A stretch of DNA of 63,148 bases, filler included, from 7 parts of 7 records of this genome joined end to end with filler, not necessarily neighbours in it, one strand, 5' to 3'. Shown: positions 22,154 to 57,339, numbered from the whole stretch's first letter. The notes: generated from the letters alone by a model not told the origin. A program made the numbers and translations.

Positions 22154-22729
22154 ATGCAAAAGATTGAATTAAGCGGTTCCATTAGAGAATCCATTGGCAA
22201 AAAAGCCACAAAAGAACTTCGTAGTGAAGGTAAAGTACCTGGCGTACTTTATGGAGGTAAAGAAGTAAAACACTTCGTAATTGAGGAAAAGCAATTAAAT
22301 GCACTTGTGTATACACCAAATGTGTACATTATTAACCTTGATGTTGACGGAGAAAAAGTAGAAGCTATCTTAAAGGATATTCAATATCATCCTGTTACAG
22401 ATAGAATTTTACACGTTGACTTCTTACAAATCTTCGAAGATAAACCTGTTGTAATTGCAATTCCAGTTAAACTAGAAGGTTTCGCAGAAGGTGTAAGAGC
22501 AGGGGGTAGATTATCTCTTGAGCAACGTAAACTTCGTGTTAAAGGTTTACCAGCTAACTTACCTGATACATTAAACGTTAAGATCGACCACCTTAAATTA
22601 GGTCAGTCTATTCAGGTTGGAGCTTTATCATTCGATAACCTTGAGTTATTAAATGCTAAAAACTCTGTAGTAGCAGCTGTTAAGCTTACAAGAGCGGCTC
22701 GTGCTGCAGCTCAGGAAGCAAAAGAGTAG
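22154..22729 (+). CDS. rplY: 50S ribosomal protein L25/Ctc
   Basis: VPGVLYGG, QYHPVTDRILHVDF, EGVRAGG. Confidence 0.96.
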   Translation: MQKIELSGSIRESIGKKATKELRSEGKVPGVLYGGKEVKHFVIEEKQLNALVYTPNVYIINLDVDGEKVEAILKDIQYHPVTDRILHVDFLQIFEDKPVVIAIPVKLEGFAEGVRAGGRLSLEQRKLRVKGLPANLPDTLNVKIDHLKLGQSIQVGALSFDNLELLNAKNSVVAAVKLTRAARAAAQEAKE

Positions 22730-22751
22730 GAAACTATTTTATAGCATATCA

Positions 22752-22782
22752 GGCCTCCATATTGAAAAGTATGGAGGCTTTT
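22752..22782 (+). terminator. Intrinsic terminator after rplY
   Basis: GGCCTCCATAT-tgaaaa-GTATGGAGGCT then TTTT. Confidence 0.8.
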
Positions 22783-22801
22783 TATATTATTTTGGTTTTA
22801 T

Positions 22802-24535: not shown

Positions 24536-24620
24536 CAGTTAACAGTATACAGGGATCGGTTAACAGTAAACAGTTAGCAGTTGGCAGTATGATAGTAAAA
24601 AGTGATCAGAAATCAGATTG
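24536..24620 (+). repeat. Degenerate heptamer tandem array (CAGTNNN)
   Basis: cagttaa cagtata cagggat cggttaa cagtaaa cagttag cagttgg cagtatg, then decaying copies after a 1-nt shift. Confidence 0.8.
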
Positions 24621-24789
24621 GATGGTTAAATTGCAAAAGCTTAATATCTCGTAAAGTAAAGTTGCTATGTTATTTATTGGAGGCCTTTGGCCTATTCAAT
24701 TGTTTTAATTTTATTTATATAAATTCCGACTCAAATAATAAATGGTTTTTAATTGAGCATTGTAATGCGTCGGGTTTATGCGTATAGTG

Positions 24790-24832
24790 TACCCGGAGCT
24801 AGCGCACCGGGCTATGTTATACAAGTCCTTTG
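24790..24832. repeat. REP-like palindrome
   Basis: CCCGG-a-GC-tagc-GC-a-CCGGG hairpin with a GCTATGTTAT tail; the tail recurs at 24664. Confidence 0.45.
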
Positions 24833-24861
24833 GTTTTGATTAATCCCTTACTACTACTGAT

Positions 24862-25135
24862 AGAATACCTATTCCGATCAAAAAAAGACCTATTCGGAGT
24901 ATAAAAACACCTAAAAACAGTGAAAAAAGACCTGTGGACTACCAGCTGAATACCTAATTTCACCTGAAATACACCTACAAATGCTGACGAAACACCTAAC
25001 GGGAGCTAAAAAACACCTAATCTCTCTGCTTAAACACCTAAATCGCATAAAAAAAGACCTAAAACTACCGGATTTATACCTATAGCTCAGTAAAACCTAC
25101 CTAATCTCCTTAATGATACACCTTTTTATGGGCTA
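24862..25135. repeat. 21-nt-period interspaced motif array: 13 x ACCT(A) (TAGGT on minus) with unique spacers
   Basis: ACCT starts at 24867, 24888, 24909, 24930, 24952, 24973, 24994, 25015, 25036, 25057, 25078, 25099, 25120; no open frame spans it. Confidence 0.92.
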
Positions 25136-25163
25136 ATTATTCCTTAGTAAGGGCGGTATTTAC

Positions 25164-25206
25164 AAAGAAAAAAGCCTGCTATCCACCCTCCAATGTGATA
25201 ACAGGC
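25164..25206 (-). terminator. Intrinsic terminator of the 232-aa gene
   Basis: Minus strand GCCTGTTATC...GATAGCAGGC followed by TTTTTTCTTT. Confidence 0.75.
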
Positions 25207-25228
25207 CCAAATGAAACCCTAACAGTTA

Positions 25229-25927
25229 TTAGTTATAATACGATTCCGAATACAAAGCTGCACGGCTTGGATTATCACGGAAGGCGTATTTTCCATATTT
25301 TCGTATATAATCTATTAAATTCTTTAGATAATAAAAGGCTTTATTGCGATTTATTATCAACATGTTATCTTCTGCTTTTTCTCCATTTAACTTACCCAGC
25401 AATAGCATTAATTCAGAACTCAATTCCTCACACCTGTCGAATAAACTCATATCGTATTGTAAAGGTTCAAATACAGAAGTATCTTTTTTGCACAGGAAAG
25501 CAATTTCGTGCAGATCCTGAATTAAATCGTCGTAACCGTCGCCAGCAGTAATAAGCGATATTTTTGCCAGTGTTGCCTGATCTTCGCTATAAACAAAGCG
25601 AAGTGTGGTAAGCAGTTCTTTTTTTAGAGCCTGGCCTTCGGGATATAAGATATTCCATTGCTTACGGGCTTCTTCTTCCTCTTTTTTGCTATCCTTCCAT
25701 ACGGTTTGGTAATCGCGAAGTCCTTCAATAGCCGGCTCCAGTTTTAAAACATAATCCTGATTTATTCCTATTTGAATAAATGCCGACATATCGTTTTTTA
25801 ATAATTCCAACAAGTCGCTGCCTTGATGTACCAAATTGACAATAGGCGTGTAAGGAGCCTTTGCCATATCAGCAGACAAAGCCTCAATTTCGCTTTTTAA
25901 AGCTTGTAATGTTTTTTGTGTCACCAT
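25229..25927 (-). CDS. Hypothetical all-alpha protein (232 aa) adjacent to the 21-nt array
   Basis: Clean ORF with amphipathic helices; C-terminal RNKAFYYL..IRKYGKYAFRDNP..Y; no signal peptide, TM or catalytic motif recognised. Confidence 0.85.
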   Translation of the reverse strand: MVTQKTLQALKSEIEALSADMAKAPYTPIVNLVHQGSDLLELLKNDMSAFIQIGINQDYVLKLEPAIEGLRDYQTVWKDSKKEEEEARKQWNILYPEGQALKKELLTTLRFVYSEDQATLAKISLITAGDGYDDLIQDLHEIAFLCKKDTSVFEPLQYDMSLFDRCEELSSELMLLLGKLNGEKAEDNMLIINRNKAFYYLKNLIDYIRKYGKYAFRDNPSRAALYSESYYN

Positions 25928-26415
25928 GATTTTAAGGTTAGAAGAAGCACAAAAAGGTGGTTTTTATGCTTCATTTGTTAAACTATATATTATACAAAAA
26001 TTAATTGTTGTTGTTTTATAAAATACAAATTCATAAAGTCAAGTACGAATCTTGTACATCCATATATATTTGTTATAATAGCATTTACGCGACTAAAAAC
26101 TTACAAGAGAAATACTGATTTGTCTGTTTAAGTGAGAGAAAGTATGTATTCATGATTAGGTTTTTTGTTAAACATACTATCTAAACTAAAGCATATTTTT
26201 CAAACAAACAAATCATCATTCATTTTTTAAGGTGTACTTATGCCTATTATCTCGCTTATAATGAATATTTTTCATTTGCTAACACCTGCATTTACTAGTA
26301 AAACCACCTTGTGAAAATATTTTTCGAATAATTTACAATAGTTGCATTTTATGATTAGTATATTGCCCATCTATTCTTCGGAAAAACAAACACTAACATC
26401 TTAACCAAACTCATT

Positions 26416-40659: not shown

Positions 40660-40759
40660 NNNNNNNNNNNNNNNNNNNNNNNNNNNNNNNNNNNNNNNNN
40701 NNNTTAATTAATTAANNNNNNNNNNNNNNNNNNNNNNNNNNNNNNNNNNNNNNNNNNNN
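40660..40759. other. Artificial contig spacer
   Basis: N44-TTAATTAATTAA-N44. Confidence 0.99.
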
Positions 40760-50776: not shown

Positions 50777-50876
50777 NNNNNNNNNNNNNNNNNNNNNNNN
50801 NNNNNNNNNNNNNNNNNNNNTTAATTAATTAANNNNNNNNNNNNNNNNNNNNNNNNNNNNNNNNNNNNNNNNNNNN
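50777..50876. other. Artificial contig spacer
   Basis: N44-TTAATTAATTAA-N44. Confidence 0.99.
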
Positions 50877-57239: not shown

Positions 57240-57339
57240 NNNNNNNNNNNNNNNNNNNNNNNNNNNNNNNNNNNNNNNNNNNNTTAATTAATTAANNNNN
57301 NNNNNNNNNNNNNNNNNNNNNNNNNNNNNNNNNNNNNNN
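57240..57339. other. Artificial contig spacer
   Basis: N44-TTAATTAATTAA-N44. Confidence 0.99.

Follow-up and report, generated by a model that had tools for sequence, protein, structure and literature searches.

A 63-kb stretch of DNA from the genome of a marine member of the Bacteroidota (the window, in whose positions coordinates are given unless another locus is named) was found to carry a gene for a 232-aa protein next to a non-coding array with a period of 21 bp. This pairing of gene and array is real and recurrent in relatives, where arrays of the same period lie beside homologous genes. From comparison of these loci we propose, with moderate confidence, that the array is a set of docking sites for the 232-aa protein, which would dock side by side on double-stranded DNA. 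Three parts of this proposal are inferred: the 232-aa protein as the binder, DNA rather than RNA as its target, and cooperativity of binding.

The array (24859-25145, no strand assigned) consists of 13 in-phase units and one degenerate unit. A listing of all ACCT occurrences placed 13 of them in phase between 24867 and 25120, with 11 intervals of 21 nt and one of 22 nt, and a degenerate TCCT in phase at 25141; 11 of the 13 motifs read ACCTA. All of this was located as the first-pass annotation, which had been made from the DNA sequence alone, had described it. Two more ACCT, at 24962 and 25095, are out of phase. The motif had been given as ACCTA after an A-rich patch; this core is present, but stacking of the units showed that the conserved word is longer and comprises an A-run, the ACCTA core and then A/T, with the plus-strand consensus aAAAAAAcACCTAatc, or about AAAAAAcACCTAA. 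Approximately 13 of the 21 nt are kept in each unit, and the remaining ~8 nt are variable. The longest chain reached 5 units in 200 dinucleotide-preserving shuffles of 20 kb and 4 units in 1000 shuffles of the intergenic stretch, compared with the 13 observed. Apart from N runs (about 40665-40756, 50777-50873 and 57240-57336), no 4-mer formed a second chain of at least 6 units in the 63-kb window at periods between 6 and 60. Each of the six frames across 24862-25145 contains at least 4 stops, with a longest open run of 61 codons, in agreement with the earlier statement that the array is not a heptad-coding open reading frame (ORF). An AT-rich stretch adjoins the array.

The first-pass annotation had also held that the array is not a slipped tandem repeat, and this did not stand. 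Tandem Repeats Finder returned a period of 21 in the array start, where the first 2.2 units are 80% alike. Furthermore, two near-identical versions of another array (L004 with 7 units, L006 with 6) differ by one whole unit. These results showed that the array is an old, decayed tandem repeat of which no more than a word has been retained. For genome-wide work the window genome was represented by a 97%-identical sister, an uncultured Saccharicrinis metagenome-assembled genome (G001). The corresponding locus there (L001) has the same array with 11 substitutions, none of which falls in an ACCTA core; by our own arithmetic, the chance of all 11 sparing the cores is P about 0.06.

We then turn to the recurrence of the pairing. 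The family of the 232-aa protein (A3) was found in 9 of 201 genomes of the order, often in several copies (up to 9 per genome), and in 4 of 401 genomes of a phylum sample. After the fragmentary matches L019, L024 and L030 had been dropped, 27 family loci from 9 genomes were examined with a detector that reports any 4-mer chained at 21±1 nt over at least 5 units. It found an array at 15 of the 27 loci, and all 15 arrays were downstream, with none upstream or inside. The array began 109-294 nt past the match end in 14 loci and at +952 in one (L011). Based on the array density in 400 kb of G001, we calculated a background expectation of ~0.06 arrays in 27 downstream stretches, as against 14 seen. 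In the genome G470, arrays were present at all three loci with downstream sequence, 29-87 nt downstream. Recurrence of downstream 21-nt-period arrays with locus-specific motifs, which had been named at the outset as a check on homologues, was thus borne out.

Inspection by eye added detail at several loci. L021 has a short run, and in genome G097 two loci (L035 and L036) carry 9-10-unit arrays upstream of the gene; in both, the sequence from array to start codon includes a shared conserved stretch (about 1384-1480) with the palindrome GGTGATATATATCAC. At L009 (G001 about 5.022 Mb), a terminator is followed from 2360 onward by 2-3 units (CGAGGACG) and then by a transposase-like ORF, as if the array had been truncated by an insertion. 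The L011 paralogue (about 2150-2900; G001 about 3.400 Mb) has an in-frame TGA and is followed by three ~260-nt repeat copies holding heptamer-like runs. Six metagenome loci with 28-45% protein identity represent three lineages, and the detector flagged three of the six. In L004, L005 and L006 the stop is followed immediately by 7, 7 and 6 units of TCWATCCGAAGGGGTCA, respectively, L002 and L003 have 5-6 units of AAAAnnnnGTCYGAY by eye, and L007, in which the gene is broken, has no array.

The period is always 21, and each array has a private word, for example ATCCGAAGGGGTCA, GTCCGAC, GGGTGCGAAGGGG, TTGTTCCGGA, GCGCTGAA, GTTGTGAA and YAGATGA. Within G001 alone, arrays of 21 bp are built on ACCTA, YAGATGA, GAACCT.. 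and AATGAYTTTGTA. When the orientation of array and gene was compared by 5-mer similarity, neither the same nor the opposite orientation was clearly favored. The pairing also extends to genes of the NCBIfam family NF052641 ('PQLLE family protein'), which form a superfamily with A3 (A3/PQLLE). Seven such genes lie above the cut-off in G001 and about 26 in G097. The detector flagged five of nine PQLLE loci, four with the array upstream and one downstream, and one more locus, L081, was seen by eye to have an array upstream.

Arrays also occur away from these genes. In 400 kb of G001 sampled evenly, six stretches were flagged, among which three were by eye real 21-bp arrays, one was a (TATAAAG)n microsatellite and one was unconvincing. 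One of the three real arrays lies ~230 nt upstream of a PQLLE gene. A search of G001 for ACCTA-N15-17-ACCTA-N15-17-ACCTA returned two places only (reversed control, 0). The second, at about 1.690 Mb (L059 about 1490-1990), is unlinked and ~1.6 Mb from the gene-linked array; with 18 exact ACCT in 23 unit positions it yields the consensus of the gene-linked array, aAAAAAAcACCTAAta. Likewise, the YAGATGA word of the array of paralogue L010 recurs at one unlinked G001 array. For G470 two words were tested, and neither occurs outside its gene-linked array. The three real arrays in 400 kb of G001 go with at least 11 superfamily genes (4 A3 and 7 PQLLE), as compared with 0 arrays in 400 kb and 1 gene for G259; the numbers are small and the relation is suggestive. 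As to the surroundings of such arrays, the 1.690-Mb array adjoins a gene for a ParD antitoxin (Pfam E 3.5e-29), with no member of the family in its vicinity. A ten-unit 21-bp array with the word GAACCTYWMTG, also with no adjacent family gene (L043 13363-13552; G001 about 1.513 Mb), is found ~290 nt upstream of the gene of a nucleoid-associated protein of the NA37 type (Pfam E 5.3e-35). A near-identical stretch at G001 2435628-2435676 and 4877219-4877289, with AGATG at 22-nt spacing, looks like other repeated sequence.

The 232-aa protein is encoded by an ORF on the minus strand (25229-25927) and is the only member of its family in the window. Pfam assigned no family above threshold, with DUF2802 as the only sub-threshold match. 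A confident AlphaFold2 model built from 12 sequences (predicted local distance difference test score 87.9) consists of helices only, the longest spanning 50 residues (63-112), in agreement with the earlier description as a helical protein. A word-indexed search gave 6 relatives, and a full profile search gave 1685 cluster representatives at E≤1e-3, with 415 at E≤1e-30. These matches indicate a family that is large, unannotated and of the Bacteroidota; its named members are 'hypothetical protein' entries of Bacteroidales, Draconibacterium, Ancylomarina and Reichenbachiella. The protein scored 26.4 bits (E 4.8e-6) against NF052641, below the 80-bit cut-off, and is not a member. However, hhalign of the 134-sequence family alignment against 9 PQLLE proteins gave 95.6% probability (E 1.3e-8, 177 columns), and the two families are therefore considered distant homologues. 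Both comprise helical proteins of ~215-240 aa, are multi-copy in the same genomes and have 21-bp arrays, which in contrast to those of A3 are mostly upstream of the PQLLE genes. The term PQLLE was not found in a literature search, and Pfam has no model for the two members tested.

Other searches with the protein yielded little. Foldseek found no match in the PDB at E≤1e-3, and the best VIA-align Z was 8.8 (talin R4 and other generic helical bundles), a range common for helical proteins. PHROGs and PADLOC searches with seven family proteins returned nothing meaningful, PADLOC giving no match. The ESM Atlas returned Bacteroidota clusters without names and, as a weak lead at 0.83, DUF6261, for which the literature search found unrelated Streptococcus work only. 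No tblastn match to the 232-aa protein was obtained in 72,556 plasmids and 50,697 phages.

Several observations bear on whether the array acts as DNA or as RNA. Between the stop codon of the gene and the array lies a terminator-like element on the minus strand (25161-25208), made up of a hairpin (25172-25208) and a T-rich run (25161-25171). On the minus strand, the 78-nt stretch 25155-25232, comprising a small 5' stem and the 37-nt hairpin, has a folding energy of -22.1 kcal/mol (z -2.29; 3 of 200 shuffles equal), and the hairpin region is identical in the sister genome. A consensus terminator scan did not have the hairpin among its listed sites. Since the hairpin and T-rich run stand between stop codon and array, the array is likely outside the transcript of the 232-aa gene. 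A terminator hairpin between gene and array was also seen by eye in L010, L013, L014, L020 and L025, and the unlinked arrays lie between convergent genes. The array of L112 (G470, 2201-2421) is composed of two inverted GTTGTGAA sub-arrays that meet at a perfect 16-bp palindrome, TTCACAACGTTGTGAA; such inverted halves present one word on duplex DNA and would give two different words in RNA. As RNA, the array of the window showed no significant fold relative to shuffles (z +1.30 and -1.22 for the two strands) and no match in Rfam. Taken together, the terminators, the location of arrays on either side of the gene, the inverted halves, the unlinked same-word array and the lack of an RNA fold favor DNA sites over a guide-RNA array. 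One of two readings offered by the first-pass annotation, phased DNA sites on which the protein polymerises, is thereby the better supported as far as the sites are concerned, and binding by the protein is its inferred part.

In the mechanism that we propose, the array would offer 13-14 sites on double-stranded DNA, each with the word AAAAAAcACCTAA, to be recognised by the protein of the neighbouring gene. As the spacing is exactly two helical turns, all sites would lie on one face of the DNA, and bound proteins would touch their neighbours head to tail, coating ~290 bp just beyond the gene's terminator. The model suggests that the protein footprint could set the 21-bp period, because the longest helix measures ~75 Å and 21 bp measure ~71 Å. 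The same protein would also occupy the second same-word array elsewhere in the chromosome. Gene and array would thus form a small self-contained accessory module, existing in many paralogous versions with a private word each. As a guess, the module might form a nucleoprotein block or anchor that acts locally where a transcription unit ends, or a cis site for its own maintenance. Extended to the whole A3/PQLLE superfamily, the proposal becomes tentative: its members may be a new class of sequence-specific 'ruler' proteins, whose paralogues polymerise head to tail on private arrays, giving dozens of orthogonal address pairs per genome and supplying the missing partner of constant-size 21-nt repeats.

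Some findings weigh against docking of the 232-aa protein on its array. Neither Foldseek nor VIA-align matched the model to a known DNA-binding fold. With a pI of 4.84 the protein is acidic, and the K/R-rich tail that many relatives carry at the C terminus is missing from it. The detector found no array at 12 of the 27 family loci, including all nine in G097, and of the real arrays in the 400 kb sampled from G001, two out of three have no adjacent family gene. Array words are not generally enriched in the genes' own upstream regions (3 matches in 6000 nt at 15 family loci vs 18 in 43,964 nt, ratio 1.2). Finally, the loci L004-L006 and those of G470 have no terminator between gene and array.

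Some of the same observations are shared by an alternative that we regard as rather unlikely, namely that the protein is no simple site-binder and that gene and array move together as a small mobile or selfish module, whose repeats would be a cis end or maintenance site or a by-product of spread, recognised by factors of the host or produced by the protein. The surroundings of the gene were examined with Pfam, which assigned the four local proteins to S4, DUF4924, no family (the 232-aa protein) and Rce1-like. The gene is convergent with that for DUF4924 and divergent from the Rce1/CPBP-type gene, and these are the neighbours named in the first-pass annotation. In five congeners (DUF4924 identity 74-77%) the Hsp15-DUF4924 pair is kept, the downstream genes differ in each, and the 232-aa gene is absent downstream of DUF4924 in all five examined. 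The gene therefore sits in an accessory patch, as had been suggested. This absence from the same spot speaks for such a module, as do the patchy, multi-copy distribution (9 of 201 order and 4 of 401 phylum genomes, up to 9 copies, and ~26 PQLLE genes in one genome), the array on either gene side in different subfamilies, the short array of L009 abutting a transposase-like ORF, the acidic protein with no known DNA-binding fold, and the orphan arrays. In contrast, the module contains no recombinase, transposase or terminal inverted repeats, the 232-aa protein has no plasmid or phage match, and conservation across 134 sequences points to no obvious catalytic set, the near-invariant residues being for the most part structural (P, L, W, G, F). 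Moreover, the words of orphan arrays recur in a gene-linked array, as would be expected of a trans-acting binder.

A role of the array as RNA is less probable again. The array would be part of an untranslated region or of a read-through transcript with 13 copies of UAGGU(G)UUUUU on the gene strand, which would titrate or scaffold the protein or be cut by it. The arrays of L004-L006 and the G470 loci must be transcribed, since no terminator separates them from the gene; at L004-L006 a terminator is found beyond the array. Long 5' leaders could include the arrays that lie upstream of PQLLE genes, and the available part of the study of 20-21-nt repeats discussed below also considers small RNAs (PMC8161180). 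Opposed to these points are the terminator hairpin with T-run between gene and array here and in at least 5 other loci, the absence of significant structure on either strand and of an Rfam family, the two RNA words that the inverted halves of L112 would yield, and the position of unlinked arrays between convergent genes. The specific version in the first-pass annotation, an RNA cut into 21-nt guides, is not supported: the variable part of ~8 nt is too short for a guide, the array shows no fold beyond shuffles, and the protein has no cas or Nop signal. Matches of the array to phages and plasmids were single stretches of 31-35 nt (E 6e-3) in unrelated hosts, which we take as chance.

We consider it very improbable that the locus is the remnant of an iteron-type replicon or partition locus integrated into the chromosome. 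Two-turn direct repeats beside a small protein gene are the classical layout of such loci, and two inverted words upstream of the gene and the AT-rich stretch beside the array would suit one. In F sopB-sopC, R1 ParR-parC and pSK41 ParR, a small protein gene lies beside direct repeats in helical phase, on which cooperative assembly is thought to occur. The present arrangement resembles these plasmid centromere arrays in that a small protein gene adjoins direct repeats in helical phase, and differs from them in having no partner ATPase (ParA/ParM/TubZ-type NTPase), an unrelated all-helical bundle, a chromosomal location, many paralogues and no plasmid match. The 232-aa gene stands alone between the convergent DUF4924 and divergent Rce1-like genes, with no partner NTPase in the module, and a segregation role is not indicated. 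Iteron origins with a Rep initiator, such as those of RK2, R6K and pPS10, have direct repeats of about 17-22 bp, spaced ~21-22 bp apart. Here, too, two-turn direct repeats stand beside a gene with inverted word copies near its start; no Rep family was detected in Pfam or NCBIfam and no winged-helix or Rep structure among the fold matches of the all-helical model, the locus is not on a plasmid, and the copies per genome are too many. More generally, neither the protein nor the adjacent genes gave a Rep, ParA, ParB or ribbon-helix-helix family, the predicted fold is a long helical bundle, tblastn against the plasmid and phage sets found nothing, and up to dozens of copies per chromosome lie among housekeeping genes. 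Descent of the array from a coding region for heptad repeats (7 codons = 21 nt), now dead, is scarcely credible: the period is a multiple of three and one frame of L004 is open by eye through five units, but at least 4 stops fall in all six frames here and, by identity, in the sister genome, arrays of unrelated words all keep 21 bp, arrays follow terminators, and no intact repeat ORF was present at the orthologous place among the loci examined.

Docking sites for the 232-aa protein thus remain our preferred reading, and we compared gene and array with further known systems. Constant-size tandem repeats of 20-21 nt were reportedly the subject of earlier work by Subirana and Messeguer (J Bacteriol 2020). 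In its available text, the 2021 article of the same authors (Int J Mol Sci, PMC8161180), centred on Bacillus and other groups, describes non-coding tandem repeats of constant 20-21-nt size and variable sequence, calls them enigmatic and suggests a polymerising protein or small RNAs. As in that article's available part (PMC8161180), the present arrays have head-to-tail 20-21-nt units, are non-coding, carry short characteristic words and occur as several arrays per genome with the same unit length and different words, as found in G001. In contrast to the repeats described there (PMC8161180), they are tied to one gene family and keep only a 13-nt word per unit. A partner protein is not named in the available text of PMC8161180, in which no mention of adjacent or neighbouring genes or of an intergenic position was found; its supplementary tables might list neighbours. 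Literature searches found no published description of the gene-array pairing, and supplementary tables might list arrays or neighbouring genes; as far as could be found, the pairing is unpublished.

CRISPR and TIGR-Tas arrays share with the present array a fixed element that alternates with variable sequence at constant period. Unlike CRISPR, the array has a 13-nt word in place of a 23-47-nt repeat, a variable part of ~8 nt in place of unique spacers of similar length to the repeats, and units that arose by tandem duplication. The first-pass annotation had noted that no cas or Nop-domain gene is present; the Pfam search bearing on this covered the four local proteins only (S4, DUF4924, the 232-aa protein and Rce1-like), and the 232-aa protein showed no such signal. 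Nor does a Nop-domain Tas protein, as in TIGR-Tas, stand beside the array, the only Pfam match of the adjacent protein being the sub-threshold DUF2802. In type III toxin-antitoxin systems (ToxIN), near-identical repeats of ~36 nt (34-40) lie upstream of an endoribonuclease toxin gene. A tandem array and a protein gene separated by a terminator are common to both, whereas the present units measure 21 nt, have diverged and lie downstream, the gene product is a helical bundle, and PADLOC gave no match for the seven family proteins.

Further features of the locus were noted. A position weight matrix scan of the window located a single inverted array word (TAAAAACCACCTTTTT) at 25951-25966 on the minus strand, 24-39 nt upstream of the ATG, and a second (AACAAAAAACCTAATC) at 26154-26169 on the same strand, ~230 nt upstream; the relevance of both is uncertain. 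Autoregulation through upstream words was considered and rejected, and operators are not claimed because array words are unenriched upstream across the 15 loci. Heptad (7-nt) repeats were likewise considered as a second part of the module and rejected, being present at few loci only and also elsewhere in G001. Directly after the DUF4924 stop (24536-24588) are eight degenerate heptamers, CAGTTAA-type on the plus strand and ACTGnnn/TAACTGA-type on the minus strand. They are missing at that spot in the five congeners; the sister genome has a similar run at another position (L040 19161-19200). Intergenic direct repeats of a similar kind, with the heptamer TAACTGA, are known, according to the available part of PMC4679880, from Beggiatoaceae, Cyanobacteria and five Bacteroidetes. 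At L003 (1637-1691) and L002 (3712-3766), 8-9 AACTTTY heptamers lie ~130 nt beyond the 21-bp array. The intergenic region of the window also holds a small hairpin at 24792-24811, CCCGGAGC..GCACCGGG, without a T-run, and another at 24681-24693, AGGCCTTTGGCCT, which is followed by a T-rich stretch and may be the DUF4924 terminator. At 22647-22793, the 3' end of an L25-like gene, a sub-threshold Rfam L10 leader (28.3 bits vs gathering 44, E 0.12) is probably a chance match.

Locked repeats of 20-21 nt have been catalogued in many bacteria without a function or partner, as far as the available part of that survey shows (PMC8161180), and here they are tied to one unannotated protein family. If the pairing of protein and array fails, the strong positional linkage would still have to be explained, most likely by a small mobile module. 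If it is true, the family would represent a new fold for DNA recognition, with a specificity that has branched out into numerous private words. The family would then offer a natural set of orthogonal protein-DNA pairs and bear on how chromosomes are organised or marked in these bacteria.

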